The notes: a model not told the origin generated them from the sequence alone. A stretch of DNA of 64,000 nt from an uncultured Methyloversatilis sp. (GCA_964478415.1 CAYZII010000003.1:468-64467), one strand, 5' to 3'; shown: positions 94-55,758, counted from the first letter of the stretch. Numbers and translations are program-made.

Positions 94-978
94 ATGATCC
101 ATTGCGAAAACCTCTCGAAGTCTTTCCGTCGCGCGCGCGTGCTGGACGGCATCAATCTCGACATCACACTCGGGGAACGCATCGCGCTGATCGGCTCGAA
201 CGGCGCCGGCAAGACGACGCTGATCCGCTGCCTGCTCGGAGAATACATGCATGAGGGCAAGGTGACCATCGACGGCCGGGCGCCACGCACGGAGCGCACC
301 GCGGTGCTCGGCAAGATCGGCTTCGTGCCGCAACTGCCACCGCCATTGAAGATGCCGGTGGGCCAGTTGATCGAATTCTCCGCCCGGCTGTCCGGCGCTG
401 ACCCGAAACAGATCCAGGCGATCTCCGAAAGGCTCGGGCTACCCATCGATGCGATCCGCAGCCGGCCTTTCAACCGTCTCTCCGGCGGAATGAAACAGAA
501 GCTCTTGATCGCGATCGCGCTCGGCCGCAATGCCAAGCTCCTGATCATGGACGAGCCAGCCGCCAACCTCGACCCCGCGGCCCGGCGTATCTTCTTCGAG
601 CTCTTGGCCGAGCGTCAGGATGACGCGACGATGATCATCTCCAGTCACCGCATCGACGAAGTAGCCGCATTGGTCAACCGCGTGATCGAGATGGACATGG
701 GCCGGATCGTACTCGACGACAAGGTCGCCGATGACGTGTCTCTGACCGGTGTCTCCGCCTGCCGCATCGTCGTGCGACGCACCGATCCGGCGTTCGCCAA
801 GGCACTGGCCGGCTGGAAATTCACCAGCGATGCCGACGGCCTGATCTGGCAAGGCGAAGTCGCCGGCCCGGACCGCCTGCGTTTCCTGGGCATGGTTTCG
901 CGCTATGTCGCGCTGATCGCCGATCTTTCGCTGACGGAAAAAATCGGCGCTGGGGATGCGGCACGGAGGCTGCAATGA
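94..978 (+). CDS. nosF: ABC transporter ATP-binding protein, NosF-like
   Basis: 294-aa ORF with Walker A GSNGAGKT, ABC signature LSGGMKQK and Walker B LLIMDEP. 4-nt overlap with the downstream NosL-like gene. Confidence 0.8.
   Translation: MIHCENLSKSFRRARVLDGINLDITLGERIALIGSNGAGKTTLIRCLLGEYMHEGKVTIDGRAPRTERTAVLGKIGFVPQLPPPLKMPVGQLIEFSARLSGADPKQIQAISERLGLPIDAIRSRPFNRLSGGMKQKLLIAIALGRNAKLLIMDEPAANLDPAARRIFFELLAERQDDATMIISSHRIDEVAALVNRVIEMDMGRIVLDDKVADDVSLTGVSACRIVVRRTDPAFAKALAGWKFTSDADGLIWQGEVAGPDRLRFLGMVSRYVALIADLSLTEKIGAGDAARRLQ
937..964 (-). repeat. Dispersed repeat core, reverse orientation, at nosF 3' end
   Basis: Reverse complement GTGCCGCATCCCCAGCGCCGATTTTTTC, versus hand consensus GTGCCGTCCCGCCAGCGCCGAGTTTTC. 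Confidence 0.6.
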
Positions 979-1466
979 AGCGCCGCGCATTCCTTGGGAC
1001 GATGTTTGCCGTCTCGCCGCTCGCCGCATCGCTCGCGGCGCTGGGCGGCTGCGGCAGGGAGGAAGGCTGGCCGGAAGGCATGCAGCCGATCAAATGGGAT
1101 CGCGACACCTGTGTCGTTTGCAACATGGTGATCTCGGACCGCCGCTTCGCCGCTGAGTTGCGTGGTGGACCGAAGAACAACGTGTTCAAGTTCGACGATC
1201 CCGGCTGCATCGCGCTGTTCCTGCACGACAAGGCAGATAAATTTCCATGGATTCGCGAACCGGCAACCAAGATCTGGGTCGCCGACGTGACCAGTCCCGT
1301 CGATGCGGTGCGTTGGCTCGATGCGAAAACCGCCCACTATGTCGCGAAGTATTCGCCGATGGGTTATAACTTCGGCGCCGTCGCCCATCCCCAGGCCGGC
1401 TCGGTCGATTTCGCGACGATGGCCGAACACGTTGTCGCCAAGGTCAGAAAGAGCGTCAAACAATGA
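975..1466 (+). CDS. nosL: NosL-family copper-chaperone-like lipoprotein
   Basis: 163 aa with lipobox LGGC. NosL-like motif DTCVVCNMVISDRRFAAE ... FKFDDPGC. Confidence 0.75.
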   Translation: MKRRAFLGTMFAVSPLAASLAALGGCGREEGWPEGMQPIKWDRDTCVVCNMVISDRRFAAELRGGPKNNVFKFDDPGCIALFLHDKADKFPWIREPATKIWVADVTSPVDAVRWLDAKTAHYVAKYSPMGYNFGAVAHPQAGSVDFATMAEHVVAKVRKSVKQ

Positions 1467-2290
1467 AACAGCTCTGGCTCACCGCCCGCCTCGACATCGT
1501 CGAATCGCTGCGTTCGCGCTGGTTTCTGATCTACACCGGCGTGTTCGGCGGCATCGTCGCGCTCCTGTTCCTCTTTGGTCTGACCGAATCGCGCGTGCTC
1601 GGCTTCATCGGCCTGTCCCGCCTGCTGGTGACCTACATCCAGCTGACGATGGCGATCTTGCCGATTTTCGTGCTGATCACGACAGTGCGTTCGGTGGCCG
1701 GCGACCGCGAGGCCGGCGTCTATGAATACTTGTTGTCGTTGCCGGTCTCATTGGGCGCCTGGTTCTGGGGCAAGATTCTCGGCCGCTATCTGGTGATTTT
1801 CGCGCCGGTGTTCCTAGCGATGCTCGCCGCCGTCGGCATCGCGATGATCAAGGAGATCGAGATTCCCTGGGAGATGTTCGGCTACTACACGGCGCTTCTC
1901 GCCGCGATGGCCGCCTGCTTCCTGGGCTTGGGAATGCTGATCTCGGCCATCGCGAAAAGCACCGACATGGCCCAGGGCGCGGCCTTCCTGACCTGGCTGA
2001 TCCTGCTCTTGTTCCTCGATCTGATCCTGCTCGGCGTGTTGATCCAGGGACGCGTCGCTCCAGAAGTCGCGATCGGCATCGCGCTGGCAAACCCCCTGCA
2101 GGTCTTTCGCACCGCCGCGCTGGCCCTGTTCGATCCGCAGCTGATCGTGCTCGGCCCAGCCGCCTATGTGATCCTCGATACTTTCGGCGCCAGCGGTTAC
2201 AAACTGTTCGCGCTCGCCTATCCGACGGCGCTCGGGCTGCTGGCCGCGGGCCTGGGGTATGTGATTTTCCGGCGCGGAGATTTGCCGTGA
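1463..2290 (+). CDS. nosY: ABC-2 type permease, NosY-like
   Basis: 275 aa with multiple hydrophobic segments. ATGA start/stop overlap with nosL. Sits in the same operon as the ABC ATPase. Confidence 0.7.
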   Translation: MKQLWLTARLDIVESLRSRWFLIYTGVFGGIVALLFLFGLTESRVLGFIGLSRLLVTYIQLTMAILPIFVLITTVRSVAGDREAGVYEYLLSLPVSLGAWFWGKILGRYLVIFAPVFLAMLAAVGIAMIKEIEIPWEMFGYYTALLAAMAACFLGLGMLISAIAKSTDMAQGAAFLTWLILLLFLDLILLGVLIQGRVAPEVAIGIALANPLQVFRTAALALFDPQLIVLGPAAYVILDTFGASGYKLFALAYPTALGLLAAGLGYVIFRRGDLP

Positions 2291-2781
2291 TCCGCTGGCG
2301 GCGCGCTTTCCTCGCGGCAATATTTCTCTGGCTGCCGCTGACGAGCCAGGCCGCAGAAGCCTCGGCGCTCTTCGACGCTACGCTCACTGCTCCCGATGAC
2401 AGGCCGCAGGCGATGGCACAATGGAAAGGCAAGCCGCTGATCGTCAATTTCTGGGCGCGCTGGTGCGGCCCCTGCCGCGACGAGATGCCGGCACTGAAAG
2501 CGATCGCCGACAAATACCGCAGCCAGGGAATCACGGTGATCGGCATCGCGATCGAGGAGAACAGCGCGAATGCACGGGATTTCCTGAAAGCCTACGAGGT
2601 CGATTACCCGAACTTCTTCGCCGGTGCTTACGGCACCGAGCTGATGAAGGCGCTTGGCAATACCAGGGCCGGCCTGCCTTTCACCATCTTCATCGACCGC
2701 CAGGGCATGCCCATCGGCCACAAGGTGGGGCGCATCAGCCGGGGCGAACTCGAGGCTGCTGCCGCTGCCCTGCTCAATTGA
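2287..2781 (+). CDS. TlpA/ResA-like periplasmic thiol:disulfide oxidoreductase
   Basis: 164 aa with a signal-like N-terminus and thioredoxin-fold motif FWARWCGPCRDEMP. 4-nt overlap with nosY. Confidence 0.8.
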   Translation: MIRWRRAFLAAIFLWLPLTSQAAEASALFDATLTAPDDRPQAMAQWKGKPLIVNFWARWCGPCRDEMPALKAIADKYRSQGITVIGIAIEENSANARDFLKAYEVDYPNFFAGAYGTELMKALGNTRAGLPFTIFIDRQGMPIGHKVGRISRGELEAAAAALLN

Positions 2782-2783
2782 GG

Positions 2784-3512
2784 ATGTCAGCCCCCCGCCA
2801 CGCGCTCGACGAAAGTTTTGGCCGCCACGCGGTGCCGCCGCAGGAGAGGCGCCACCGCATCCGGCGCATGTTCGACGCGATCGCGCCGCGTTACGACCTG
2901 ATGAACGACCTGATGAGCTTCGGCATCCACCGGCTGTGGAAACGCCGGCTGGCCAGTCGCTGTAAGGGCATGACCGGCTTCGTCGTCGATCTGGCGGGCG
3001 GCACCGGCGATGTCGCGCGGCGACTCGTGCGTGCCGACCGCATCGTCACCGTCTGCGATCCCGGCATCGAAATGATGAAAGTCGGTGCTGGAAAGACGGC
3101 ACCGATCCACTGGATCGCCGGCGAGGCCGAGGCGCTGCCCTTTGCGACCGGCAGCGTCGATCTGCTGACGATCTCGTTCGGCATCCGCAACGTCACCCAG
3201 CTTGCCGCGGCGCTTTCTGAGATCCATCGTGTAATCAAGCCCGGCGGACGCTTCGTCTGTCTCGAATTCTCGCGTCCGGCCTGGTGGCTGGCGCCGTTCT
3301 ACGATCTCTATTCGTGGCTGGTGATTCCGCGCCTCGGCGCCGCGGTGGCGCGCGCATCCGGCGCCTACCAGTATCTGGTCGAATCGATCCGGCGTTTTCC
3401 CGATCAGCGTGAGTTCGCCGATCTGCTCACCGCAGCCGGCTTTCGCGAGGTGCGTTGGGAAAATCTCTCATTCGGCATCGCCTGCCTGCATTTCGGAACC
3501 AAGGCCGCATGA
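2784..3512 (+). CDS. ubiE: Demethylmenaquinone/ubiquinone C-methyltransferase (UbiE/MenG family)
   Basis: Internal ATG 2784 of ORF 2421..3512. RMFDAIAPRYDLMNDLMSFGIHRLWKR plus SAM motif VVDLAGGTGD. The upstream part of the ORF overlaps the tlpA frame and is Arg-rich noise. Confidence 0.85.
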   Translation: MSAPRHALDESFGRHAVPPQERRHRIRRMFDAIAPRYDLMNDLMSFGIHRLWKRRLASRCKGMTGFVVDLAGGTGDVARRLVRADRIVTVCDPGIEMMKVGAGKTAPIHWIAGEAEALPFATGSVDLLTISFGIRNVTQLAAALSEIHRVIKPGGRFVCLEFSRPAWWLAPFYDLYSWLVIPRLGAAVARASGAYQYLVESIRRFPDQREFADLLTAAGFREVRWENLSFGIACLHFGTKAA

Positions 3513-4432
3513 AGCTCGAACCGCCCGGCGCGCTGATCGCATCGCCACCACCGCCGTGGCGCATCTGGTGGCTGGCGGCTCGTCCGCGCACCTTGCCGCT
3601 CTCCCTGACACCGGTGCTGGTCGGTCTGTCACTCGCTTGGGCAGAGGGCGCGACGCCGCGGGTGCTGGCCGCGCTGGCGACGCTGGCTGCGGCGCTCCTG
3701 ATCCAGATCGGCACCAACCTGTACAACGATGCCGCCGATTTCGAGCGCGGCAACGATTCGCCCGGCCGGCTGGGCCCCTTGCGTGTCACCGCCGCTGGTT
3801 GGGTGAGCCCCCGGCAGGTACGTTTCGCTGCCTATCTGGCTTTCGGCAGCGCCTTTGGGCTCGGCACCACCCTCGCCTGGCTCGGCGGCTGGCCGATCGT
3901 TCTCATCGGTCTGGCCGCGCTGGCCGCGGGGCTGGCCTATTCCGGCGGGCCGCGGCCGATCTCGCATACGCCGTATGGCGAACTGTTCGTCTGGTTCTTC
4001 TTTGGTGTGCTCGCCGTCGCCGGGACACACTGGCTTCAGGCGCAGCGCCTCTCTCCCACCGCGCTGCTCGCCGGCGCGGCGCTGGGCCTGCCGGCGGCCG
4101 CGGTGTTGCTCGTCAATAATCTGCGCGACCTCATCCCCGACCGCGCCGCCGGCCGCGTGACGCTGGCCGCGCTGCTGGGCGATCGGCCGGCACGCGACAC
4201 TCATGCGGTGCTGATGATCGCGCCATTCGGTTTCCTGCCCGCGCTCGCCGCGCTGCTGCCCAACAGCCCCGGCGTCTGGCTTGCGCTGGTCGCGCTGCCG
4301 GCCAGCCTCGCCGTGGTCAAACGGATGCGCAGCGCGCACGGGCATGCTTTCAACGAGGTGCTGGCCGCCACGGCGCGCGCCCAGTTCCTGTTCGGTCTTT
4401 TCCTCGCCATCGGTTTTCTGCTCCCATTATGA
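3509..4432 (+). CDS. menA: 1,4-dihydroxy-2-naphthoate polyprenyltransferase
   Basis: ATG 3509 overlaps the ubiE stop (ATGA). UbiA-superfamily motif [14 protein letters not shown]. Many hydrophobic segments. Confidence 0.85.
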
Positions 4433-5256
4433 CGTTTAAATGGACTTCCGCCGGCAATTACGGTGACATCCTCTACGAACTCTCCGGCGATGGCATCGCG
4501 AAGATTTCGATCAACCGTCCGCAGCGCCGCAACGCCTTCCGCCCAGAAACCGTGATGGAACTAATGGATGCCTTCACCCGCGCCCACCGCGACCCGGAGG
4601 TCGGCGTGATCATCCTCACCGGTGTCGGCGACAAAGCCTTCTGTTCGGGAGGGGATCAGACCGTGCGCGGCGATGATGGCGGCTATCACGATGCTGCGAC
4701 CGGCACGCCGCATCTGAACGTGCTCGATTTGCAGATGCAGATCCGCCGCCTACCGAAGCCTGTCGTTGCGATGGTCGCCGGCTATGCGATCGGTGGTGGC
4801 CATGTGCTGCATCTGGTCTGCGATCTGACCATTGCCGCCGACAATGCGCGTTTCGGCCAGACCGGCCCGCGTGTCGGCAGCTTCGATGCGGGCCTGGGCG
4901 CAGGCCTGCTGGCACGCGCGATCGGCATCAAACGCGCGAAGGAAATCTGGTTCCTGTGCAGGCAATACGATGCCCAGACCGCGCTCGCCTGGGGCCTGGT
5001 CAACGCCGTCGTGCCGCTCGAGTAACTCGAAGACGAGACCGTCGCCTGGTGCCGCGAGATGCTCAAGCTCTCGCCGACGGCGCTCAGGATGATCAAGGCC
5101 GGCTTCAACGCCGATACCGATGGACTGGCCGGCATCCAAGAACTCGCCGGGCAAGCCACCGGGCTCTTTTACATGACCGCAGAAGGACAGGAAGGCCGCA
5201 ATGCCTGGCTCGAAAAGCGGCCGCCGGATTTCTCCAAATTCCGCCGCCGGCCATAA
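4429..5256 (+). pseudogene. menB: 1,4-dihydroxy-2-naphthoyl-CoA synthase interrupted by one in-frame TAA
   Basis: ORFs 4429..5025 and 5059..5256 are in the same frame, split only by TAA at 5023-5025. The joined product ...[23 protein letters not shown]...[29 protein letters not shown] is collinear with crotonase-fold MenB. Confidence 0.85.
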
Positions 5257-5442: not shown

Positions 5443-5673
5443 ATGACCTCTTTCGATCGCATCACCATTAATCCCGCCATCATGAACGGTCAGCCCACTA
5501 TCCGCGGCATGCGCTTGACCGTCCGCCGCGTCGTCGAAGCGGTGGCGCTCTATCCCGACCGCGCCGAACTGTTACGCGAATATCCCGAGCTCGAAGAAGA
5601 AGATATTCGCCAGGCCTTGGCGTTTGCCGCGAGCAATCTCGCGGATGAAACGCTACCCCTGCTGGCGGCGTGA
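5443..5673 (+). CDS. DUF433-family antitoxin-like protein
   Basis: 76 aa. ITINPAIMNGQPTIRGMRLTVRRVVE is typical of DUF433. GTGA overlap with the downstream PIN-like gene. AAGGAG Shine-Dalgarno sequence upstream. Confidence 0.7.
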   Translation: MTSFDRITINPAIMNGQPTIRGMRLTVRRVVEAVALYPDRAELLREYPELEEEDIRQALAFAASNLADETLPLLAA

Positions 5674-6038
5674 TCTCGCTGCTTTTCGATCAGGGGTTGC
5701 CACGCTCCGCAGCGGTGGCGTTACGGGAGGCAGGATGGCTGGTTACGCATGTCGCCGAAATCGGACTATCCAAAGCTAGCGATTCTGCCATCATCGACTA
5801 TGCGCGCACCCACGGCTGCCATATCGTCACACTGGATGCCGATTTTCATGCACTGCTGGCGATCTCCGGCGCCCGTGCGCCTTCTGTGCTGCGGCTGCGT
5901 ATCGAAGGACTCAGAGCCACTGAACTTGCCGATCTGCTGAAACGTCTCTGGCCGCAAATCTCGGCGGCCATCAGCGCCGGCGCGCTCGTCACCGTGACGG
6001 AAAAACAAGTGCGCATCAAAGGCTTGCCGATCGCGTGA
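5670..6038 (+). CDS. DUF5615/PIN-like (Mut7-C-like) putative toxin
   Basis: 122 aa with GTG start. FDQGLPRSAAVALREAGW...IVTLDADFHALLA pattern. Paired with the DUF433 gene. Confidence 0.6.
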   Translation: MISLLFDQGLPRSAAVALREAGWLVTHVAEIGLSKASDSAIIDYARTHGCHIVTLDADFHALLAISGARAPSVLRLRIEGLRATELADLLKRLWPQISAAISAGALVTVTEKQVRIKGLPIA

Positions 6039-7111
6039 CCACGACCCTTCTCATTGCCGAGATCATTCCCTATCGCCTGCCGCTCAAGCGTCCCTGGGTC
6101 GGGGCGTCCGTGACGCTGACCGAGCGGCGCGGGGTGTTATTACGGCTCGTCGATGAGGACGGCCTGGCAGGCTGGGGCGATTGTGCGCCACTGCCCAGCC
6201 GCAGGGATCCGCAGGCGGTCATCGATGCGCTCGCCACCTGGTCGTGCCGTCCCGCCAGCGCCGAGTTTTCGAAGTGGCTCGGCGCCCGGCGGGACGATTT
6301 CTTTTCTGCCAGCGCCGAGTTTCAACATTTGCCTGCCGAAGCGCGCTGGGCGATCGAAACCGCGCTGGCGGATCTCGCCGCGCAGCGTGCCGGCCTGCCG
6401 CTGTGGCGGCATCTGGGCGGGACGTCGAATGAGGTCGAAGTCAATGCCGCGCTCGGTCCTCTCGACGAAGCATTGCCCGAGCGCCTCGTCGCCGCGCAGG
6501 CGCAAGGCTATCGCATCGGCAAGATCAAGGTGGGCCTGGCGCCTGTCGAAGAGGAGATCGCCCGCCTGCGCGCGCTGGATACGCCACTCTCGCTGCGTCT
6601 CGATGCCAATCGCGCATTCGACGATGATGCGGCGGAGCGTTTCCTGACGGCGCTCGCCGACCTGCCGATCGAGGCGGTCGAAGAGCCGTTTCAGCGGCCG
6701 TCGTTGGCAAAACTCGCCGCGCTGCAGGCGAGGCTCCCCTTCCCGCTCGCGCTCGATGAATCGCTGCCTGACTTTCCCCTCGCCGCAGTGATTGAAGCCC
6801 GCGCAGTACGTCGCCTGGTGCTGAAACCGGCGCGGCTGGGCGGTATCGCTGCGACGCTAGCGATCGCGCGCGAGGCGCAGGCGGCCGGCATCGAGGTCGT
6901 GCTCACCTCGGTAGTCGATTCGGCGGTCGGTGTCACTGCCGCCACCCATCTGGCCGCGGCACTCTCGCCCGATCTCACACATGGCCTGGGCACCAGTGCG
7001 TGGCTCGCGGAGGATGTCGCGCAGCCGCTGCCCATCCTCGGCGGTTCGATGAAACTGCCAGAGGCAGCGGGATTAGGTCTCACCCCGGCAACGGTTCGGG
7101 CCGGTGGATGA
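6035..7111 (+). CDS. menC: o-succinylbenzoate synthase (enolase superfamily)
   Basis: GTG 6035 overlaps the toxin stop. Motifs YRIGKIKVG, LRLDANRAF, VEEP. Carries the 83-nt repeat at 6244-6326 in frame. Confidence 0.8.
   Translation: MTTTLLIAEIIPYRLPLKRPWVGASVTLTERRGVLLRLVDEDGLAGWGDCAPLPSRRDPQAVIDALATWSCRPASAEFSKWLGARRDDFFSASAEFQHLPAEARWAIETALADLAAQRAGLPLWRHLGGTSNEVEVNAALGPLDEALPERLVAAQAQGYRIGKIKVGLAPVEEEIARLRALDTPLSLRLDANRAFDDDAAERFLTALADLPIEAVEEPFQRPSLAKLAALQARLPFPLALDESLPDFPLAAVIEARAVRRLVLKPARLGGIAATLAIAREAQAAGIEVVLTSVVDSAVGVTAATHLAAALSPDLTHGLGTSAWLAEDVAQPLPILGGSMKLPEAAGLGLTPATVRAGG
6244..6326 (+). repeat. 83-nt composite repeat element, in frame inside menC
   Basis: The core is followed by GGCGGGACG (6288-6296), complementary to CGTCCCGCC (6248-6256). 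GCCAGCGCCGAGTTT is repeated exactly 54 nt downstream (6254 and 6308). Confidence 0.85.
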
Positions 7112-11131: not shown

Positions 11132-12328
11132 ATGTCCCTCCTGCACCACTGGCTTTCCCGCGCCGCCGCCGACCAACCTGCACTGATCCTGCCGGATGGT
11201 GCCACGCTCCGCTATGGCGATCTGGCCAAGCAGGCCGGAAAGACTGGCCTGCAAGCAATCGACGGCGATGCCGGCACACTCGCCCGCGGGCTGATCGAAA
11301 CCGCGCTCGGCGGCGGCACGGCCTTTCCCCTGCCGCCGACACTCGATGCTTCTCACCGCGACAGGCTGATCAGACTGGCCCGTGGCGCCACCGATCCGAA
11401 GCTGGCATTGATCATCGCCACCAGTGGCTCGACGGGGGAACCCAAAGCAGTGAAGCTTTCCTGGCGTGCGATCGCCGCAGGCGCCCGCATCAGCGCACGG
11501 GCAGTGGATCTATGCCCCGGCGATGCCTGGCTCGTCTGTCTGCCGCTCTTTTTCGTTGGCGGCGCGATGATTCTCTACCGTACCTTACGCGCCGGTGCCA
11601 CCGTCGTGGTGCAGGAAGGGTTCGATGTAGCCCGGGTGGCGGATGCACTCGTCGCGCAGCGCATCACCCATCTGTCGCTGGTGCCGGCGATGCTGGCGAA
11701 ACTGATCGAGTGTGCCATGCCGCCAGCGCCGAGTTCGAAATGTGTGCTGGTCGGCGGCCAGGCGCTCTCCCCGACACTGGCGGAAAAGGCACTTGCCGCC
11801 GGCTGGCCGCTCAGGCTGTCCTACGGGATGACCGAGACCTGCGCCACCGCGCTGATCGACGGTCGTCCCCTGCCCGGCGTGCGTGTGCGCCTGTCTGCGG
11901 CGGGCACACTCGAAATCGCCACACCGGCCCGGATGAAAGGTTACCTGGGAGGGTCGCCATCCGGCGAGTGGCTCACGACGCAGGATCTCGCGCAGATCGA
12001 TCCAGACGGCCGGGTGACGATCCTGGGCCGCGCTGACGAGATGCTGATCTCGGGCGGTGTGAATCTCCATCCGCTGGAGATCGAGGCCACGCTCTCGCGC
12101 TGTCCCGGCGTGCGCGAAGCCGGCGTCACCGGTTTGCCCGACCCGCTTTGGGGTGATCTGATCGCCTGCGCCTACGAGGGCGAGGCGCAGGAAGATGCCG
12201 TCGCCGACTGGTGTCGCGCCTGCCTGCCTTCCTCAAGGCGGCCTCGCCGGCTGCTGCGCGTTCCCCGTCTGCCGCGGCTGCCTTCCGGCAAACTGGATCG
12301 CCGCGCCCTACGGCGTCTTTGGTCATGA
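11132..12328 (+). CDS. menE: o-succinylbenzoate-CoA ligase (short AMP-binding enzyme)
   Basis: 398 aa with AMP-binding motif IIATSGSTGEPKAV. ATGA overlap with menF. Contains a repeat core at 11712. Confidence 0.75.
   Translation: MSLLHHWLSRAAADQPALILPDGATLRYGDLAKQAGKTGLQAIDGDAGTLARGLIETALGGGTAFPLPPTLDASHRDRLIRLARGATDPKLALIIATSGSTGEPKAVKLSWRAIAAGARISARAVDLCPGDAWLVCLPLFFVGGAMILYRTLRAGATVVVQEGFDVARVADALVAQRITHLSLVPAMLAKLIECAMPPAPSSKCVLVGGQALSPTLAEKALAAGWPLRLSYGMTETCATALIDGRPLPGVRVRLSAAGTLEIATPARMKGYLGGSPSGEWLTTQDLAQIDPDGRVTILGRADEMLISGGVNLHPLEIEATLSRCPGVREAGVTGLPDPLWGDLIACAYEGEAQEDAVADWCRACLPSSRRPRRLLRVPRLPRLPSGKLDRRALRRLWS
11712..11740 (+). repeat. Dispersed repeat core inside menE
   Basis: GTGCCATGCCGCCAGCGCCGAGTTCGAAA. 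Translated as CAMPPAPSSK. Confidence 0.65.
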
Positions 12329-13638
12329 TCGACTGGCATAGGCTCGCCGAGGCACTTGCTTCACTCGCCGGAAGCGCCCAGCCGGCGCGTTTGCTGAGCG
12401 TCAGCTGCGCACTGCCGCGCTGGCCGGCGGTCACGCCAGTCGGTGAATGGTGTCACTGGCAACGACCCGAGCAAGGCATGCGGCTTTTCGCTGTCGGCTG
12501 TGCCGCCTTCGTCGAAAGCGCAGGCGCGGGGCGTTTCGCGGCGCTCGCCGCCGCACAGCGTGGACTGGCCAATGCTTGGCAGGCCGACGCGACCAGTTGC
12601 AAGCGTGCTTTCGTCGGCTTCGCTTTCACGCCGGAAGGCGGCGCACCCTTCCCGAATGCCCGCCTCTGGGTACCCGAACTGTTGCTTTGCGAAGAGCACG
12701 GGCGGATCGCCCTGACACTGAGCTGTGCGGCAGAACAAGCGGGCAGGGCAGTGCCGCGTTGGCGCAAGCTGTGGCGGGAGTTGACCACGGCATGTGCCGT
12801 CCCGCGAGCGCCGATTTTCCGCATCCAGCGCAATCCCGTTGCCGATCAGGCTTTTCTGGCGCGCGGCCAGGCCGCACTCGCGGCGATCAGACAAGGCGCT
12901 GTCGACAAACTGGTGCTGACCCGTACGTTGCGGGTAACGATGGACCAGCCCATCATGCCGACAGCGTTGATCGGGGAACTGGCACGACAACATCCCGCTT
13001 GTGCGGTGTTCGGCCTCGGCAACGGGCGGAGGAGTTTCCTCGGCGCCTCGCCGGAAACCCTGCTCGCGATCGACAAACAAACTGTAATGGTCGACGCACT
13101 CGCCGGCACGGCCTGGCAGGACACGGTGCAAACGCTCGAAGACGAAAAGAACCGCCGCGAACACGACTGTGTCGCCACCGCGATCATCGAGGCGCTTGCC
13201 GGAGTGTGCAGCGAGATCGATCTGCCGGCAAATCCAGAAGTGATGCAGCTTTCCGGGCTGAGCCACCTGCGTCGCCGTGTCCGGGCGTGCCGTCTGACCG
13301 CAACGAACGCATTCGATCTCCTTGCGCGGCTGCACCCGACCCCAGCCGTCGGCGGCACGCCCACCGCTGACGCGCTCGATTGGCTGGCCGGCCACGGCGA
13401 TACCCGCGCCGCCTGGTATACGGGCGGCTTCGGCTGGATCGACACCAGTGGTGATTGCGACATCGCCGTCGCGTTGCGCTGTGGGCTGTTCGAAGGCTGC
13501 GAAGCGACGCTCTATGCCGGCGCAGGCTTCGTCGCTGGTTCCGATCCAAAGCAGGAGCTCGCCGAAACCGAGGCCAAACTCACAGCGCTGCTGAATGCCT
13601 TGGCGACGCTCGGTCGCCCCAACCGGGCCGTCGCATGA
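12325..13638 (+). CDS. menF: Isochorismate synthase
   Basis: ATG 12325 overlaps the menE stop. Chorismate-binding motifs LHPTPAVGGTP, YAGAGFVAGSDP. Confidence 0.85.
   Translation: MIDWHRLAEALASLAGSAQPARLLSVSCALPRWPAVTPVGEWCHWQRPEQGMRLFAVGCAAFVESAGAGRFAALAAAQRGLANAWQADATSCKRAFVGFAFTPEGGAPFPNARLWVPELLLCEEHGRIALTLSCAAEQAGRAVPRWRKLWRELTTACAVPRAPIFRIQRNPVADQAFLARGQAALAAIRQGAVDKLVLTRTLRVTMDQPIMPTALIGELARQHPACAVFGLGNGRRSFLGASPETLLAIDKQTVMVDALAGTAWQDTVQTLEDEKNRREHDCVATAIIEALAGVCSEIDLPANPEVMQLSGLSHLRRRVRACRLTATNAFDLLARLHPTPAVGGTPTADALDWLAGHGDTRAAWYTGGFGWIDTSGDCDIAVALRCGLFEGCEATLYAGAGFVAGSDPKQELAETEAKLTALLNALATLGRPNRAVA
12794..12821 (+). repeat. Dispersed repeat core inside menF
   Basis: GTGCCGTCCCGCGAGCGCCGATTTTCCG. 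Translated as CAVPRAPIFR. Confidence 0.7.
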
Positions 13639-24119: not shown

Positions 24120-24222
24120 GATTCTCCATCGTTCTTTCTGGAACGTCGGCTTTCGTCTCTTCTTTCTGTTTGCCTGTCTTGTGGCGCGATCTTTCCGCTG
24201 GGATGGGAGCTTATGTTCTCTA

Positions 24223-24273
24223 GTGCCATGCCATCAGCGCCGAGTTTCGTCCCGTCTCCGCTGCGATGGCATG
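24223..24273 (+). repeat. Dispersed repeat, intergenic hairpin-forming copy
   Basis: GTGCCATGCCATCAGCGCCGAGTTTCG... CATGCCATC (24227-24235) pairs with GATGGCATG (24265-24273). Confidence 0.7.
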
Positions 24274-24553
24274 TCTCCGAGATTCTCTTTGGCTCTGGTT
24301 GAGCGTTATTTGCCTTTTCTCCCCGCGCCGCCCATCGATGGCCGGGCGCACTGAGGGTAAACTCCACACCATGAACGCCAGGCTGCGCATATCCCGTTCC
24401 GCTTCGGGCATCGTCCCCGAAGCTGCCACCGGCTGGCTGCGCTTCGGCGTCATGGCGGTGCCGCAAACCGCTCCACCAGCGATGTTCCTTCCATCCTGAA
24501 ATCTGCTGCCGGCGACTTATGCCGGATTGTCGTCTTATTGGAAGGAGCCTTCT

Positions 24554-42626: not shown

Positions 42627-44663
42627 TCAGGCAGCAGGCTCGACCATGCCATTATGGCGCAACAGCGCCTCGAATGATGGCTCCCGGCCACGGAAAGCCT
42701 TGAAGGATTCGAGCGCCGGGCGCGAGCCGCCGACGGCGAGAATCTCGCGCCAGAAGCGCTCGCCGGTCACCGCATCGAGCACCGTGCCGACCTCGGGGAC
42801 GACCTCCTCGAACGCGGCATAGGCATCGGCGGAGAGCACCTCGGCCCATTTGTAGCTGTAATAGCCCGCCGCATAACCACCAGCGAAGATGTGGGAGAAG
42901 CTGTGGGGAAAACGATTCCACTCGGGTGGCACGATCACCGCGACTTCGCGGCGCACCTCGTCGAGTAGCTGCATGAAATCCTTGCGATTCTCCCAATGCA
43001 GGCGCAGATCGAAGAGCGCGAACTCGATCTGGCGCAGCATAAACAGCCCGCTTTGGAAGTTCTTCGCCGCGATCATCTTGTCGAACAGGGCGCGCGGCAA
43101 TGGTTCGCCCGTGTCGACATGGGCGCTCATATCCTTGAGCACGTCCCATTCCCAGCAGAAGTTTTCCATGAACTGGCTGGGCAGCTCGACGGCATCCCAC
43201 TCGACCCCATCGATGCCGGAGACCGCAAGCTCATCGACTTCGCTGAGCAGGTGGTGCAGGCCGTGGCCGGTTTCGTGGAACAGTGTCAACACGTCGTCGT
43301 GGGTGAGCAGCGCAGGCTTGCCCGCCAGCGGTGGCGTGAAATTGCAGCACAGGTAAGCGAGCGGCGTCTGGATCGTGCCGTCTTTCCAGCGCCGACCGAT
43401 CGCATCGGCCATCCACGCGCCGCCGCGCTTGGTCTCGCGCGCATAGAGATCGAGAAAGAACTGGCCGACGAGTCGCCCTTGCCGCTCGATGCGGAAAAAC
43501 AGCACATCGGGATGCCAGGCCGGCGCCTGATCCGCCACGATCCTGACGCCGAAAAGGGTTTCGATGCAGCGGAACAGCCCCCCGAGCACCTTGGGCAGAG
43601 GGAAGTACTGTTTCACTTCGTCGTCGGAAAAGCTGTAGCGCGCCTGTTTGAGCTTTTCGGACGCCCAGGAGATATCCCAGCTCGCCAGTTCTTTCAAACC
43701 CAACTCGCGCGCCGCAAAGTCGCGCAGCTCGGCGAGATCGCGCTCGGCAAACGGTCTGGCGCGTGCCGCGAGATCGCGTAAGAAAGCGGCTACTTGCGCA
43801 GGCGAATCGGCCATTTTCGGTGTCAGCGAGAGCTCGGCATAGTTCGCAAAACCGAGCAGGCGAGCTTCCTCGGCGCGCAGTTCGAGGATGCGCTCGATCA
43901 ATGGCCCGTTGTCCCATTCAGGCTTGCCGAACTCGGAGGCACGCGTCGCGTAGGCGCGATACATCCGGTAACGCAAATCACGATCGTCGGCGTACTGCAT
44001 CACCGGCAGATACGACGGCGCATGAAGGGTGAACTTCCAACCCGCTTTGCCTTCTTTTTCGGCAGCCGCCCGCGCCGCCGCCTTGACATCCTCTGGCAGA
44101 CCAGCGAGGACAGCCTCGTCGCTGACCCATTCCAGATGGGCATTGGTGGCATCGAGCAGATTCTCGGCGAACTTCGCGCCCAGCGCCGAGAGCTCCTGCT
44201 GGATGGTGAGGAAACGCGGCTTCTTCTCAGCCGGCAATTCCGCCCCCGCGAGACGGAAATCACGCAGTTCGTGAGCGACGATGCGCCGGCGCACCGGGTT
44301 CAGATGCGCATACTCGGAACTAGCGGCGAGCGCCTTGTATTTCTCATAGAGCGTGACATTCTGGCCCAGTTCGGCGTAAAAGCGCGTCACTTCCGGCAAC
44401 AACGCGTTATAGGCATCGCGCCATTCGGGAACATCATTCACGCCGTGCATGTGCTGCACCAGCCCCCAGGCGCGCCCGAGCCGCTCGCCAGCATCGGTGA
44501 GGGGCTGAACGAAAGCCTCCCAGGTCGGCGGGGAGTCAGGGCGCTCCAGCCGTGTCAGCAATCCACGGTATTCATCGATCAGCTGGCGGATCGCCGGGGC
44601 GACGTGTTCGGGCCGGATTTCCGCGAAACGCGGCAGCCCGCTGAAATCGAGCAATGGGTTCAT
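42627..44663 (-). CDS. prlC: Oligopeptidase A (M3 family)
   Basis: 678 aa with zinc motif FHETGHGLHH. Confidence 0.95.
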   Translation of the reverse strand: MNPLLDFSGLPRFAEIRPEHVAPAIRQLIDEYRGLLTRLERPDSPPTWEAFVQPLTDAGERLGRAWGLVQHMHGVNDVPEWRDAYNALLPEVTRFYAELGQNVTLYEKYKALAASSEYAHLNPVRRRIVAHELRDFRLAGAELPAEKKPRFLTIQQELSALGAKFAENLLDATNAHLEWVSDEAVLAGLPEDVKAAARAAAEKEGKAGWKFTLHAPSYLPVMQYADDRDLRYRMYRAYATRASEFGKPEWDNGPLIERILELRAEEARLLGFANYAELSLTPKMADSPAQVAAFLRDLAARARPFAERDLAELRDFAARELGLKELASWDISWASEKLKQARYSFSDDEVKQYFPLPKVLGGLFRCIETLFGVRIVADQAPAWHPDVLFFRIERQGRLVGQFFLDLYARETKRGGAWMADAIGRRWKDGTIQTPLAYLCCNFTPPLAGKPALLTHDDVLTLFHETGHGLHHLLSEVDELAVSGIDGVEWDAVELPSQFMENFCWEWDVLKDMSAHVDTGEPLPRALFDKMIAAKNFQSGLFMLRQIEFALFDLRLHWENRKDFMQLLDEVRREVAVIVPPEWNRFPHSFSHIFAGGYAAGYYSYKWAEVLSADAYAAFEEVVPEVGTVLDAVTGERFWREILAVGGSRPALESFKAFRGREPSFEALLRHNGMVEPAA
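43375..43397 (+). repeat. Dispersed repeat core-like sequence inside prlC (antisense to gene)
   Basis: GTGCCGTCTTTCCAGCGCCGACC: the 8-nt and 10-nt blocks match at the correct spacing. Encodes the conserved-looking GRRWKDGT on the minus strand. Confidence 0.45.
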
Positions 44664-44711: not shown

Positions 44712-44740
44712 GTGCCGTCTAGCCAGCGCCGAATTTCAGC
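44712..44740 (+). repeat. Dispersed repeat core at purC stop / prlC upstream junction
   Basis: GTGCCGTCTAGCCAGCGCCGAATTTCAGC. The TCA at 44736-44738 is the purC stop codon on the minus strand. Confidence 0.7.
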
Positions 44741-45611
44741 GCGTTAAACGTTGCAACGCTTCCCGATACTTCGCCGCCGTCTTCTCGATGATCTCGGCCG
44801 GCAGATGCGGGCCGGGCGCCTGCTTGTTCCAGTCGAGCGTTTCCAGATAATCGCGCACGAACTGCTTGTCGAAGCTGGTCGGACTTACGCCGACGGCATA
44901 GCTGTCGGCCGGCCAGAAGCGGGAGGAATCAGGGGTCAGCACCTCGTCGATCAGGTACAGAGTGCCTGCCGCATCTAGACCAAACTCGAACTTGGTGTCG
45001 GCTATGATGATGCCGCGCGTCAAGGCATATTCGGCCGCTTCGCTATAGAGGCGCAACGCGACGTCGCGCACCTGTCGGGCGAGCGCCGGCCCGATGGTCT
45101 GTTCGACCGTGGCGAAATCGATGTTTTCATCATGAGTGCCGAGCTGCGCCTTCGTCGAGGGGGTAAACAGCGGCTGCGGCAGCTTTTCCGCGAGACGCAG
45201 CCCCGGCGGCAACGTGATCCCGCAGACCTGACCCGTTTTCTGATAATCCTTCCAGCCGGAACCGATCAGGTAACCGCGCACCACCGCCTCGATTGGCAGG
45301 GGCTCGAGCCTCTTGACGACGATCGCGCGGCCGCGCACCTGCTCGCGCTCACCGGGCTGTACGACGGATTCCGGATCGATGCCGGTCAACTGATTGGGAA
45401 TGATGTGCGCGAGCTTCGCGAACCAGAAGTTGGCCAGCGCGGTCAATACTTCACCTTTGCCGGGGATCGGGTCCGGCAGGATCACGTCGAAGGCGGAGAG
45501 CCGGTCGGTGGTGACGATCAGCATCTTGTCGTCGCCGACCGCGTAGATGTCACGCACCTTGCCGCGGTTGATCAGCGGCAGGCTGTGGATCGAGGATTCG
45601 AAGAGGAGCAT
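44736..45611 (-). CDS. purC: SAICAR synthase (long form)
   Basis: 291 aa. [16 protein letters not shown]. Confidence 0.95.
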
Positions 45612-51186: not shown

Positions 51187-51218
51187 ACCTGCCCCGTTAC
51201 TCGATTCAGTCGATGATC

Positions 51219-51248: not shown

Positions 51249-51249
51249 T

Positions 51250-51280: not shown

Positions 51281-51308
51281 AAATGCATCATCGCCGAAGG
51301 AGACGGAT

Positions 51309-51815: not shown

Positions 51816-54041
51816 GAGGCCGGCCACCCAGGCCTGACCGAGCGACAGGCCACCGTCGTTAGGCGGTACTGCCTGCGCCTCGATCAGTGCGATGCCGTGG
51901 CCCGCAAGCCCGCTGCGCAATGCTGCACTCAGCAGGCGGTTCAGCAGGCAGCCGCCGGCGGCGGCGACGGTGCGGATGCCAGTGCGTGCGGCAAAGGCGC
52001 TGAGCCAGTCAGTCAGGGCGGCAGCGAACGTCGCATGGAACAGCGCCGCACCGGCGCTGGCATCCTCGCAGTCTTCCAGCCAGCCGAACAACGTCAGGAG
52101 ATCGAGACCGCCCTCGGCAGTGAGTCGCCATCCTCCTTCCAGCGGGGCAGCCGGTCCATGCCGCGCAGCCAGCCCCTCGAGCAGCATCGCGGCCTGCCCC
52201 TCGAAACTGATACGCCGACGTACTCCCAACAATCCCGCCGCGGCGTCGAACAGCCGGCCCGCGCTCGCGGTCGGCGGACAATGGAAGTCGCGCTCGAGCA
52301 TCTGAGCCACGGTTCCCGCCGCCGGTTCGTCAGCAAACCGCCGCACGATCTCCTCTCCCCGACCCAGGCAGTGCAGCACGGCAGCTGCCATGCGCCAAGG
52401 CTCGCGGGCCGCGACATCGCCTCCCGGCAGCGGCAAAGGTCGCAGATGTGCAAGGCGCTCGCAATCCGCACCATCGACGCGTAACAGCTCGCCGCCCCAG
52501 GCCGTGCCATCCGTGCCGAGCCCGACGCCGTCGAGCGCCAGTCCCAAGACCGGCGACGTGATGCGATGTTCGGCACAGACCGCAGCGATATGCGCATGGT
52601 GGTGCTGCACCCCAAGTGCCGGAATGCCGTGTTCCGCTGCAAAAGCCGCGGCGAAACGCGTTGAAAAGAAATCTGGGTGCAGGTCGTGGGCGACCGCCTC
52701 GGGCCGCACCTCGAGGATGTGCAACAGATGTGCGACGGTCTCCTCGAAGAAGCCGCAGGCGGCGGCATTGTCGAGATCGCCGACATGCTGCGAGACGAAA
52801 GCCTCTTCCCCGCGCGTGACACAGATCGTGTTCTTGAACCAGCCGCCGACGGCGAGCACCGGTGGCAACGGCTGTGGCAGCCGGATCGCCCGGGGCACAT
52901 AGCCGCGCGCACGACGGATGAAGCCCCCGCCAACACTGGCGCGCCGCACCGAATCGTCGCAACGGATCACGATGTCCCGATCGTGCAGCAAAAACGCATC
53001 GGCGATACCGGCAAGCCGCTCCCGGGCTTCCTCGTTGCCGATCACCAGCGGCTCGCCATGCGGATTGGCGCTGGTCATCACCAGCGCCATCTGCGGCGCG
53101 TCGTGAAAGAGCAGATACTGGATCGGGGTGACCGGCAGCATCAGCCCGATCTCGGCGAGCCCTGGCGCTACGCCGGGCAATTCGTTTTTCTTCTCCAGCA
53201 AGACGATCGGCCGCTCCGGCGAGGTCAAGAGTGCCGCCTCGCCAGCGCAGAGTTTTGCATGACGTGCGGCTTGCCCGAGATCCCCGACCATCACCGCGAA
53301 GGGCTTTTCCTCGCGCTGCTTGCGCGCACGCAAGGCCGCGACGACGGCGGCGTTCGTCGCATCGCAGGCGAGATGAAAACCGCCCAGTCCTTTGATCGCG
53401 ACGATCCGGCCGGCTTGCAATAGCTCGAGCGCCGTTGCGATCGGATCGCCGGCCAAAGGTCGGCCCGAAGCATCGCAAAGCGTCAAACGCGGCCCGCACT
53501 GCGGACAGCAGATCGTCTCGGCATGGAAGCGTCTGTCGCGTGGATCACGATATTCCCGCTCACAGTCCGGGCAGAGCGGGAATACCGCCATGCTGGTCTG
53601 CGGCCGGTCATAGGGCAGCCGCCGCGTGATCGTGTAACGTGGCCCGCAGTGGGTGCAGGTGATGAACGGATGACGGTAGCGGCGATTGGCGGGATCGAAC
53701 AGTTCGGCAAGGCAGTCGCTGCAAGTCGCCGTGTCATGACCGATCGCGGTGACGATCCGTCCGCCGGCACTCTCGATGATGCGGAATTCGCGCAGGTGGA
53801 GCGGCTCGCTGGATGTCACCTCCACCGCATCGATGCGTGCCAGCGGTGGCGCTGCGCTTATCAGCCGCGCAATGAAGGTCTGCAACGCCGCATCTGCGCC
53901 TTCGAGATGGATCTCGACGCCCGCGGCGTCGTTCCTCACCCAGCCGGAGAGTCCGAGTTCCTGTGCCAGCCGCCACACGTAAGGACGAAAACCGACCCCT
54001 TGCACGACGCCCCTGACACGTATGCGTATCGCATCAACCAC
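51783..54041 (-). CDS. hypF: [NiFe] hydrogenase maturation carbamoyltransferase HypF
   Basis: GTG 54041. Acylphosphatase [12 protein letters not shown]. Zinc fingers [23 protein letters not shown]. YrdC and Kae1-like domains. Confidence 0.93.
53231..53258 (+). repeat. Dispersed repeat core inside hypF (antisense to gene)
   Basis: GTGCCGCCTCGCCAGCGCAGAGTTTTGC, about 23/27 to the consensus by hand count. Confidence 0.6.
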
Positions 54042-54906
54042 GAAGCCCCGCGACGCCTTTCTCGATCCAGGCAAACCACGTGTCCATGCCCGCGCCGGTC
54101 TTCGCCGAGACCTGCAGCACTTCGAGCAATGGATTGACGCGGCGCGCGTTGGCAACCGCCCTGTCGGGATCGAAATCGACGTGTGGCAACAGATCCGTCT
54201 TGTTGATCAGCATCAGCCGCGCGGCGCGGAACATGTCCGGGTATTTGAGCGGCTTGTCCTCGCCTTCGGTGACCGAGAGGATCACCACCTTGCCGGCTTC
54301 GCCGAGATCGAAGGCCGCCGGGCAGACGAGATTGCCGACGTTCTCGATCATCAGCACGCCGCCGTTTGCCAGCGGCAGCTTCTCCAACGCATGGCCGACC
54401 ATGTGGGCATCAAGATGGCAGCCCTTGCCCGTGTTGATCTGCACCGCCGGTGCGCCGGTGGCGCGGATACGTTCGGCATCGAAGCTGGTCTGCTGGTCGC
54501 CCTCGATCACCGCGATCGGCACCTTGCCTTTCAGCCCCTCGATGGTCTTCACGAGCAGCGTCGTCTTGCCCGAGCCGGGGCTGGAGACGAGGTTGAGAGC
54601 CAATACGCCGCGGGCGGCGAAAAAATCGCGGTTCTGCGCGGCGAAGGCATTGTTCTTCGCCAGGATGTCCTGCTCCAGACGCAACGTACGGCCGTGGTCG
54701 TGCGCATGCCCCGTCGGGCGGTAGCCATGTTGCCCCTCGGCGGCATGGGCATGCGTGTGATCATGCTCGCTGCCGTGGCCATGCGTCTGGGCATGGTCGT
54801 GCGGGTGACTGTGGGTCGTGCCGTCCGCATGGGTATGTTCGTGGGTATGGACGGTTTGCCCTTCGATTTTCGTTTCGCCTTCGCCGCAGCCGCAGGTCGT
54901 GCACAT
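54034..54906 (-). CDS. hypB: Hydrogenase nickel-incorporation GTPase HypB with His-rich tract
   Basis: N-terminus [10 protein letters not shown]. About 50-aa His-rich region. P-loop [11 protein letters not shown]. Confidence 0.95.
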
Positions 54907-54912
54907 GATGCT

Positions 54913-55254
54913 TCACTCCACTTCCAGGTCGATGATGCGCAGCGCGTCGCCACCGGTCACCTGCACCGGAAAACCGCCACAATGCGCGCAGGGATCATAA
55001 ACGTTCGCCAGCGGCGTGTCCCGGCCGCACTGCACACACCGTCCCGCCCCCGGGGTCGCGACGATCTCGAGCCGGGCGCCCTCGGTAATGCCACCTCGCA
55101 TCACGACGTCGAAACAGAACGCGAAGGCCTCGCGCTCGACACCGGAGAGCTGGCCGATCTCGACGCGCACGCTGCTCACATGGTCAAACCCTTCGCGTGC
55201 CGCCGCCTCCTCGATCAGCTCGCGCACACTCACGGCCAGCGACATTTCATGCAT
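54913..55254 (-). CDS. hypA: Hydrogenase nickel-insertion protein HypA
   Basis: 113 aa. MHEMS start. CVQCG...CAHCG zinc site. Confidence 0.9.
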   Translation of the reverse strand: MHEMSLAVSVRELIEEAAAREGFDHVSSVRVEIGQLSGVEREAFAFCFDVVMRGGITEGARLEIVATPGAGRCVQCGRDTPLANVYDPCAHCGGFPVQVTGGDALRIIDLEVE

Positions 55255-55263
55255 GAAACAATT

Positions 55264-55731
55264 TTACTCGCCCAAGCCAAGGAGCTTGCGGCGTGTCCCG
55301 GAAACGGGCGAGCCATCCTCGGCCTGTGGCTGCACTGCCGGCATGTCGAGTGCGATCAGGCAGGCACGCGCGGTGGCCAGTGCGGTCTCCTGATCGGCGA
55401 AAGGTTTCATGTCGGAAATCAACGGGCAGGCAAGATAGTCGCCGAGCCCCTCTTCGTGGTTCGGCAAAAAGGCGAAAGTGCCAGCCGGATACTCGCGGAA
55501 AACACGTTCATGCGGTGCTGGAACCGGCCACTCTGCGACCGCCGGCAACAGCAGCAGCTGGATGCCCCAAGGGGTGACCAGCACACCACGCCAGTCGTCG
55601 CCCTGGCGCGCGAAACCGACCACGGCGACGGTAAGCCTGGGATTCAGAAACGGCAATCCGGCCATACGCTCGGTCTCGATACGCCGGAAGGTGGCTTCGA
55701 TCAGCGGGCCGGGGTTTTCAACGTGAAACAT
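55264..55731 (-). CDS. hybE: [NiFe] hydrogenase assembly chaperone HybE-like
   Basis: Start taken at ATG 55731 (MFHVENPGPLIEATFRRIETERMAGLPFLNP...). The longer ORF start at 55779 would overlap hyaD. Confidence 0.7.
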   Translation of the reverse strand: MFHVENPGPLIEATFRRIETERMAGLPFLNPRLTVAVVGFARQGDDWRGVLVTPWGIQLLLLPAVAEWPVPAPHERVFREYPAGTFAFLPNHEEGLGDYLACPLISDMKPFADQETALATARACLIALDMPAVQPQAEDGSPVSGTRRKLLGLGE

Positions 55732-55758
55732 GCCGTTCTGCCAGCGCCGATTTTCAGC
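55730..55758 (+). repeat. Dispersed repeat core filling the hyaD-hybE junction
   Basis: ATGCCGTTCTGCCAGCGCCGATTTTCAGC. Contains the hybE start (CAT 55729-55731) and the hyaD stop (TCA 55754-55756). Confidence 0.7.

Follow-up and report, generated by a model that had tools for sequence, protein, structure and literature searches.

A 25-nt uptake-sequence-like word in coding and non-coding DNA of Rhodocyclales-type Betaproteobacteria

Why does one short DNA word recur in unrelated genes, and on both strands, along a single stretch of bacterial DNA? We studied this question for 64,000 nt from an uncultured Methyloversatilis sp. (GCA_964478415.1 CAYZII010000003.1:468-64467); this whole stretch is called the window below. 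An earlier description made from the DNA alone (the sequence-only reading) had listed 13 copies of a motif of about 27 nt and regarded it as strand-polar, over-represented and tolerated by coding sequence. It had offered three explanations, namely a DNA uptake sequence (DUS), a polar signal of the Chi/KOPS kind or a small mobile element of the MITE or REP kind. We found that the motif is real and that its enrichment is beyond doubt. Our preferred explanation is that it is a DNA uptake or uptake-enhancing sequence in a new lineage. We hold this view with about as much doubt as confidence, and uptake itself is deduced from the likeness to known systems.

Enrichment of the word in the window

For the 13-mer CAGCGCCGAGTTT we counted 19 matches with at most two mismatches in the window, compared to 2.9 expected from dinucleotide shuffles and a shuffle maximum of 7. 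We then scored the window with a position weight matrix (PWM) built from the copies. It returned 15 sites at 26-41 bits and one at 16.7 bits, and the remainder of the 64 kb stayed at or below 8 bits. The same picture emerged when we sorted the sites by their mismatches to TGCCGTCNNNCCAGCGCCGANTTT: three sites had no mismatch, five had one, three had two, three had three and two had four, and there were none with five. The control DNA consisted of 120 loci (890 kb) from unrelated high-GC genomes that were matched by the pattern GTGCCGTC-N4-CCAGCGCCGA, in which the spacing differs from the true N3, and that hold single chance matches. Here the counts for zero to four mismatches were 0, 0, 0, 0 and 1, so that 16 window sites stand against one site in 890 kb. 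The copies and associated features are as follows (PWM scores in bits, open reading frames abbreviated as ORF, metagenome-assembled genomes as MAG).

938-964, minus strand: word copy GTGCCGCATCCCCAGCGCCGATTTTTT, antisense to an ABC-transporter ATPase gene (94-978) in the stretch that encodes the C-terminal tail; PWM 32.8; frame EKIGAGDAAR; Pfam ABC_tran
3076-3102, minus strand: word copy GTGCCGTCTTTCCAGCACCGACTTTCA, antisense in a ubiE/menG-type methyltransferase gene (2421-3512); PWM 35.9; frame MKVGAGKTAP; Pfam Ubie_methyltran
6244-6270, plus strand: perfect word copy (no mismatch to the consensus of the sequence-only reading), sense in menC (CRPASAEF), where it forms the left hairpin arm; PWM 40.6; Pfam MR_MLE
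6280-6295, plus strand: CGGCGCCCGGCGGGAC, an inverted variant of the word core, centre of one 54-nt in-frame module
6298-6324, plus strand: half copy that closes the 54-nt module (CCAGCGCCGAGTTTCA at 6309-6324); PWM 16.7
11712-11738, plus strand: word copy, sense in menE (AMPPAPS); PWM 30.8; Pfam AMP-binding
12794-12820, plus strand: word copy, sense in menF (AVPRAPIF); PWM 36.2; Pfam Chorismate_bind
14654-14735, plus strand: word copy at 14654-14680 with a degenerate 54-nt module after it, sense in menD (CRPASAEFSERHGGRRDIVISAGAEF); PWM 40.8
19474-19500, plus strand: weaker word copy at the start of norE (AAIPAPDF); PWM 26.5; Pfam COX3
22525-22551, plus strand: word copy, sense in norD; PWM 34.9; site also filled in Sulfuricystis multivorans and S. 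thermophila in a gap-free alignment
24223-24273, plus strand: variant word copy (24223-24249) with the co-varying inverted arm GATGGCATG, in an nnrS remnant downstream of norD; PWM 32.1; hairpin z -4.1; homology to the nnrS start of loci L284 and L285
28975-29001, minus strand: word copy, antisense in carA; PWM 36.7; orthologous copies in S. multivorans and in MAG L242; codon alignment of six genomes without indel
43375-43401, plus strand: word copy without the T-run, antisense to prlC (AIGRRWKDGT), where it falls in a variable loop; PWM 26.3; aligned to oligopeptidase A of the PDB
44712-44738, plus strand: word copy between prlC and purC, non-coding by codon score, its last three bases (44736-44738) overlapping the purC stop codon; PWM 40.3
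44736-45611, minus strand: purC ORF
53231-53257, plus strand: word copy, antisense in hypF; PWM 36.0; orthologous copy in metagenome locus L223
55730-55756, plus strand: word copy in an uncharacterised ORF (54022-55917), close to its 3' end; PWM 36.0; no Pfam match
62939-62965, minus strand: word copy 3 nt upstream of the start of ORF 61569-62936; PWM 37.8

All 13 copies of the sequence-only reading were recovered (the one given at 937 spans 938-964). Its list was incomplete, as the minus copies at 3076-3102 and 62939-62965 and the plus half copy at 6298-6324 had been missed. The spacing of the 15 copies has a coefficient of variation of 0.82, which at 15 points is indistinguishable from random, and Rfam and tRNA scans of the window gave no matches.

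Twelve of the 15 copies are coding and lie in the ABC ATPase gene, ubiE/menG, menC, menE, menF, menD, norE, norD, carA, prlC, hypF and the uncharacterised ORF. Together with the shuffles, the weight matrix and the control DNA this bears out the claim that the motif is over-represented and tolerated by coding sequence. Pfam confirmed the earlier names for menC, menE, menF, menD and norE, and gave no match for the norD ORF. The labels norD and hypF are those of the sequence-only reading, taken over without independent confirmation, and the Pfam scan left out prlC and hypF. The surroundings of norD (a norQ-type CbbQ/AAA_5 gene, nosD and a cytochrome c) are consistent with its label, and the prlC product matches solved oligopeptidase A structures. 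The sense frames reported before, CRPASAEF and A-V-P-P-A-P, are correct. In antisense copies the encoded peptide is mostly K-[VIL]-G-A-G-x-[TA]-A.

Shape and strand symmetry of the word

In order to describe the word beyond the window we collected public contigs with the correct pattern. This metagenome set holds at least 120 loci with 769 kb in total. It contains 219 PWM sites, 85 of which deviate from the exact search pattern and are hence unselected. The consensus is (G)TGCCGTCYYGCCAGCGCCGAsTTTy with 25 nt. The logo of 213 distinct metagenome copies reads (G)TGCCGTC-[C/T][C/T]G-CCAGCGCCGA-[C]-TTT-[T/C], with most positions 95-100% conserved, and the word can be summarized as (G)TGCCGTC-YYG-CCAGCGCCGA-s-TTTy. 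Directly beyond positions 1-26 the information of the logo falls to background and the flanks are unconserved. These sharp edges argue for a discrete 25-nt word and not for the conserved core of a longer element. The 27-nt matrix of the 15 window copies carries about 32 bits, and the metagenome copies carry more. We also observed a difference that resembles a dialect: position 22 is C in 86% of the metagenome copies and mostly G, A or T in the window.

The word is asymmetric and non-palindromic. We found no general hairpin partner for its copies, as the complementarity to their own flanks equalled that of shuffled pairings, and solo copies folded no better than shuffles. The nearest opposed copies in the metagenome loci are about 400 nt or more apart, with no exact inverted pairs.

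Coding calls in the metagenome set were made with a codon log-odds caller trained on the window genes. About 65% of the copies were coding and about 35% non-coding, and the word is in excess in non-coding DNA. The earlier statement that the orientation ignores gene direction holds, with 57 sense and 75 antisense copies. All six reading frames are used with a clear bias (54, 27, 23, 16, 7 and 5 copies).

Strand polarity was the one general property claimed before that we could not reproduce. The window has 11 plus and 4 minus copies, which is non-significant once the two missed minus copies are counted (two-sided binomial p = 0.12; a ratio of 11:2 would give 0.022). In the metagenome contigs we counted 102 plus and 100 minus copies, similar numbers in both orientations as for DUS. 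When we compared orientation with the sign of the GC skew of the metagenome loci, a check proposed by the sequence-only reading, no relation was visible (27:29 versus 29:28). The orientations are also mixed within single contigs and run - + - - + + - - along one of 646 kb and - - + + + + - along one of 242 kb. Neighbouring copies in the metagenome loci were co-oriented in 49 and opposed in 33 cases, which is non-significant (p = 0.097). As a separate observation, opposed neighbours in loci L122-L241 were divergent (minus then plus) in 23 cases and convergent in 10 (p = 0.035); this excess is possibly noise.

Origin in place and distribution across genomes

The copies in carA and in an aldolase gene illustrate how the word arises. 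In carA it overlies EW[KR]LGxGY, a protein motif that is conserved also in genomes without the word. In the genomes with the word, flanking codons were changed to complete it, and six genomes, including Denitratisoma, Nitricoxidivorans and Thiobacillus, align with no change in length. For the aldolase copy, seen in S. multivorans and locus L165, the window has non-word sequence of equal length at the aligned site, and MAG L242 has a half-decayed version. The suggestion that the word accumulated in place and was not inserted is thus upheld, as coding copies show no indel relative to orthologues without the word. Intergenic presence or absence can match a gap of 20-26 nt, and a copy upstream of a crp-like gene corresponds to such a gap in the window.

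All three copies that we compared with distant homologues (carA, prlC and menD) lie in variable protein stretches. The menD copy falls in a gappy region of the homologue alignment. The prlC copy had been considered native conserved coding sequence; it sits in a loop with a 4-residue indel relative to the solved oligopeptidase A structures, which contradicts that claim. Mutation in place, tolerant positions and frame bias, which are traits of uptake sequences, were thus all observed for the word.

Several sites are shared between genomes. Those in carA, hypF, norD and menD are common to genomes whose flanks are 69-82% identical (about 20% diverged). The peptide that the word encodes in menD, CRP[AV][SGN][AT][DE]F, occurs at the same position in about 47 of 120 MenD homologues, many of which are only about 60% identical to the MenD of the window. 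It follows that the menD copy is old and that the clade with the word is broad.

The carB gene of the window is 92% identical to that of S. multivorans, which places the window among Rhodocyclales-type Betaproteobacteria. The copies number 15 in the 64 kb of the window, 9 in 45 kb of S. multivorans and 3 in 23 kb of the Rhodocyclaceae MAG L242 (88% carB identity), and 22 kb of S. thermophila hold 5 full copies and one half copy. The overall density is about one copy per 4-8 kb. Extrapolated from this regional density, a genome of 2.6-2.7 Mb would hold roughly 350-650 copies. No strong copies turned up near carB in Ca. Nitricoxidivorans, Denitratisoma and a Thiobacillus MAG, three genera at a greater distance (83-85% carB identity; 61 kb in total). 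De novo 11-mer counts in these loci, which offer only 15-23 kb each, revealed no alternative dialect. The word is specific to a clade that comprises S. multivorans, S. thermophila, the organism of the window and many uncultured relatives.

Two weak single matches were seen in the same carB loci, one in the Thiobacillus MAG (L245, 768-794, 22.5 bits) and one in Ca. Nitricoxidivorans (L243, 22500-22526, 16.8 bits). The control DNA gave one match of at least 12 bits in 890 kb and both matches are above that rate; they could be relics or a divergent dialect. A scan of IMG/VR returned only 38 matching stretches, several of them with multiple copies; these stretches are inseparable from host DNA contained in prophage calls. 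One of the loci, L253 (IMGVR_UViG_3300009945_000063, ~880-2400), carries five word copies, one per tandem unit of about 316 nt bounded by GCCTAAC...GTTAGGC. The borders resemble an integron attC site, and the locus appears to be an array of near-identical small cassettes, each with the word.

A 54-nt in-frame module at some copies

At some sites the word is extended by a module of 54 nt (18 codons), in which a half word and then an inverted variant of the word (CGGCGCCCGGCGGGAC) are each followed by a spacer. The layout is GTGCCGTCCCG-[CCAGCGCCGAsTyTyC-N9-CGGCGCCCGGCGGGAC-GyyyTCATTTCCG]n-CCAGCGCCGAsTTT. The inner 16-mer corresponds to the word core in inverted and varied form, so that word and module fold as a strong hairpin; the menC copy of the window has a computed energy of -23.6 kcal/mol (z -6.2). 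This module accounts for the half copy at 6298 and for the hairpins seen at 6244 and 14654. It is present in zero to three tandem units and behaves as an indel of variable copy number:

menC: window 1, S. multivorans 0, S. thermophila 2
menE: window 0, S. multivorans 0, S. thermophila 3
menD: window 1 (degenerate), S. multivorans 1, S. thermophila 0
nnrS: window 0 (remnant), S. multivorans 2, S. thermophila 1
Sites: window 6244-6324 and 14654-14735; L284 11020-11110 and 18980-19100; L285 2409-2540, 7919-8080 and 20436-20510
Sites in metagenome loci: L205 ~2400-2560; L124 ~430-520

The menC and menE modules of S. thermophila have an identical spacer, which indicates one source and not independent slippage. 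In different genes the module is read in two different frames, and it is therefore an entity at the level of DNA. Outside Sulfuricystis it is rare, with two sites and three units compared to 219 PWM sites in 769 kb. A restriction to the men operon was ruled out, since we saw the module in nnrS too, and at two loci outside men on a metagenome contig. It adds 18 residues to enzymes, for example MenC, MenD, MenE and NnrS, an unusual repeat expansion that is tolerated inside proteins.

Neighbouring genes

Three further features of the locus were noticeable. In the menB gene (4429-5256) codon 199 is an in-frame stop (…VVPLE*LEDETV…), which could be a nonsense mutation, the mark of a pseudogene or an assembly error; over 275 residues the product shares 89% identity with S. 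multivorans MenB. Downstream of norD about 200 nt of the 5' end of nnrS are left (24120-24305), where S. multivorans and S. thermophila keep the full gene; the homology to both ends soon after the word copy at 24223. Between menB and menC lies a DUF433/DUF5615 pair (window 5452-6035, S. multivorans L284 1906-2498), probably a toxin-antitoxin system, which is absent at this place in S. thermophila.

What the word may be

We observed a sharp and asymmetric word that occurs on both strands and in all frames, arises by substitution in variable protein stretches, respects clade limits, shows dialects, is in excess in non-coding DNA and reaches hundreds of copies by extrapolation. Judged by analogy, uptake sequences are the one known case with such a signature that we can name here. 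The word is also independent of the direction of transcription, and its orientation has no link to the replication proxies that we used (GC skew and long contigs). Among the three explanations offered by the sequence-only reading the DUS fits best, and both the polar signal and the MITE/REP family are unlikely. As an uptake sequence the word would be a tag of self DNA that is read on double-stranded DNA by the competence machinery. Fragments that carry it would be taken up preferentially and then recombined, point mutations that improve near-matches would consequently spread (molecular drive), and the word would build up on either strand wherever the encoded peptide is tolerated. The module would provide an allele with more sequence that resembles the word, and conversion over short homologies might carry it from one word site to another. 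Natural competence, word-biased uptake and a protein that reads the word would all have to be assumed for these bacteria.

Several points weigh against an uptake sequence. We found no competence genes among the window genes (64 kb), and the literature searched held nothing on Sulfuricystis and competence and no natural transformability shown for relatives. With 25 nt and about 32 bits the word is far longer and richer than a DUS (10-12 nt) or the core of the uptake signal sequence (USS, 9 nt), and the CTG core that is essential for neisserial DUS is unconserved in it. The exact inverted terminator pairs that are typical of DUS were not seen, and even the nearest copies in opposite orientation are separated by more than 400 nt. 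The density of the word is 4-8 times below that of DUS and USS. In the syntenic men-nor-car region the union of sites shows a local excess of one orientation (14:5, p = 0.064).

Much of the same signature (over-representation, sharp edges, strand symmetry and in-place origin) would also be expected if the word were the recognition site for another genome-wide DNA transaction, such as a recombination or repair hotspot, a mark of self and non-self for a defence or nuclease system or the site of a chromosome-organising protein. Selection or biased gene conversion would then maintain it at hundreds of sites. About 32 bits would suit a specific protein-DNA or guide-DNA interaction, and the reverse complement of the word holds GCTGGCGG, which is one base off E. 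coli Chi. Abundant words with dedicated reader proteins do exist, for example NTS/Ssn (PMC11893778). However, NTS/SRM form hairpins and are intergenic, and the word differs in both respects. The known families of such sites are either few in number and palindromic (parS, matS, Noc, SlmA) or short and polar (Chi, KOPS), and the word has no polarity. To our knowledge no known family consists of an asymmetric 25-nt word that lies mostly in genes and uses six frames. We regard a site of this kind as possible, though unlikely.

We also considered that the word, instead of tagging DNA for uptake, may be the 25-nt address of an undescribed system that writes or copies short patches of DNA into the chromosome, with the 54-nt in-frame hairpin module as its mobile, self-expanding form. 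Such a system might work by templated short-patch conversion from a single-stranded donor or through a mini-element that targets the word. The idea is speculative and we consider it rather improbable; if true, it would describe a new kind of coding-tolerated selfish DNA.

The module also lends some weight to a conventional mobile element, either a REP/REPIN with its RAYT or an in-frame element similar to MITEs or Rickettsia palindromic elements (RPE), of which the solo words would be decayed or half elements. Its inverted variant pairs with the word in strong hairpins, the number of units varies among orthologues of menC, menE, menD and nnrS, and the shared spacer in different genes of S. thermophila points to one source. 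The 20-26 nt gap of the window at the copy upstream of the crp-like gene agrees with this as well. The solo words, however, lack conserved flanks, terminal repeats and target duplications, and coding copies such as that in carA arise without indels. Unlike REP/REPIN, 65-80% of the copies are intragenic, and the word is non-palindromic and without a general inverted partner. Moreover, the two module sites with three units outside Sulfuricystis are few against 219 PWM sites in 769 kb, and no transposase was seen in the window. We therefore think that a mobile element is quite improbable as the source of the word.

A strand-polar, replication-oriented signal like Chi or KOPS, the view favoured by the 11:4 ratio on a window strand with uniformly negative GC skew, the 14:5 ratio of the syntenic region and the 49 versus 33 co-oriented neighbours, is hardly credible, since none of the three biases is significant (p = 0.12, 0.064 and 0.097), mixed orientation on the 646- and 242-kb contigs, the overall 102:100 and the absent GC-skew link (27:29 versus 29:28) make such a signal unlikely, and Chi and KOPS have 5-8 nt compared to the 25 nt of the word.

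We thus return to the uptake sequence as our preferred explanation. The sequence of the word was found in no paper of the literature searched. According to a 2025 survey (10.1101/2025.10.24.684340), uptake-enhancing sequences comprise DUS in Neisseriaceae and USS in Pasteurellaceae, and sequence-specific uptake has so far been tied to these two host-associated families only. The theory of molecular drive versus selection rests on both. If our explanation is true, the word would be a third, independent case in free-living, sulfur-oxidising and partly thermophilic Betaproteobacteria, on which the generality of the theory could be tested. It would also point to natural competence in a group without described competence, and it would provide a handle for genetics, as the word added to donor DNA could improve transformation.

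Comparison with known systems

REP and REPIN, which are mobilised by RAYT, resemble the word in their hundreds of short GC-rich copies, some of which form hairpins with an inverted partner. They differ from it as they are palindromic, extragenic and spread by insertion, whereas the word is asymmetric, 65-80% intragenic and arises without indels. It is therefore not a palindromic extragenic repeat of this type. RPE are palindromic in-frame insertions of about 100-150 nt in genes. Only the 54-nt module is similar to them: it forms a hairpin, has a length that is a multiple of three bases and is tolerated in two frames in the ORFs of unrelated proteins. In contrast to RPE the module has 54 nt, always nucleates at a pre-existing 25-nt word and expands in tandem. 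The 25-nt word itself shows none of the insertion traits of MITEs or RPE (indel, terminal repeats, target duplication).

The NTS/Ssn system of Neisseria (PMC11893778) likewise involves an abundant genomic repeat that interacts with natural transformation. NTS form a hairpin with an ATTCCC-N8-GGGAAT core and are intergenic and clustered around particular genes (PMC11893778). We rejected a motif of this type, as the word is neither a hairpin nor clustered between genes. Nor does it resemble a short co-oriented word of the Chi/KOPS type, given its 25 nt, the missing relation to GC skew and the mixed contigs.

The USS of Pasteurellaceae has a 9-nt core with AT-rich flanks and spans about 29-32 bp, an extended length of similar order, and the word shares its T-rich 3' end. 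In H. influenzae 65% of the USS lie in ORFs, in similar numbers in both orientations, with a reading-frame bias and at poorly conserved positions (Findlay and Redfield, PMC2817400). The proportion in ORFs, the frame bias, both orientations and the mutational origin at poorly conserved protein positions are all matched by the word. The sequence is unrelated, however: neither AAGTGCGGT nor ACAAGCGGT with AT-rich flanks is found in the consensus. The word is specified at all 25 positions, compared to a core with loose flanks. The host lineage differs as well, as USS hosts are host-associated and the hosts of the word are free-living sulfur oxidisers.

The DUS of Neisseriaceae (ATGCCGTCTGAA and its dialects, with the receptor ComP) is, like the word, non-palindromic, hugely over-represented, present on both strands inside and outside genes, and clade-specific with dialect-like variation; its hosts also belong to the Betaproteobacteria. 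The differences concern length (25 nt compared to 10-12 nt), positions 9-11 (Y-Y-G compared to a fixed CTG), the lower density of the word and its location, which is mostly coding compared to about 35% of DUS in ORFs (PMC2817400). The word is no 10-12 nt word of the GCCGTCTGAA type with a CTG core, and it forms no intergenic inverted-pair terminators, as hairpins arise only from the rare 54-nt module. Since the defining sequence features fail (length and CTG core for DUS, the core for USS), the word belongs to neither family. Its 5' half shares TGCCGTC with the DUS ATGCCGTCTGAA, at a chance probability of about 0.014-0.022. This match between two sequences is suggestive only, but it is a lead: if the word is an uptake sequence, the shared TGCCGTC would raise the question whether uptake specificity in the Betaproteobacteria goes back to a common origin.

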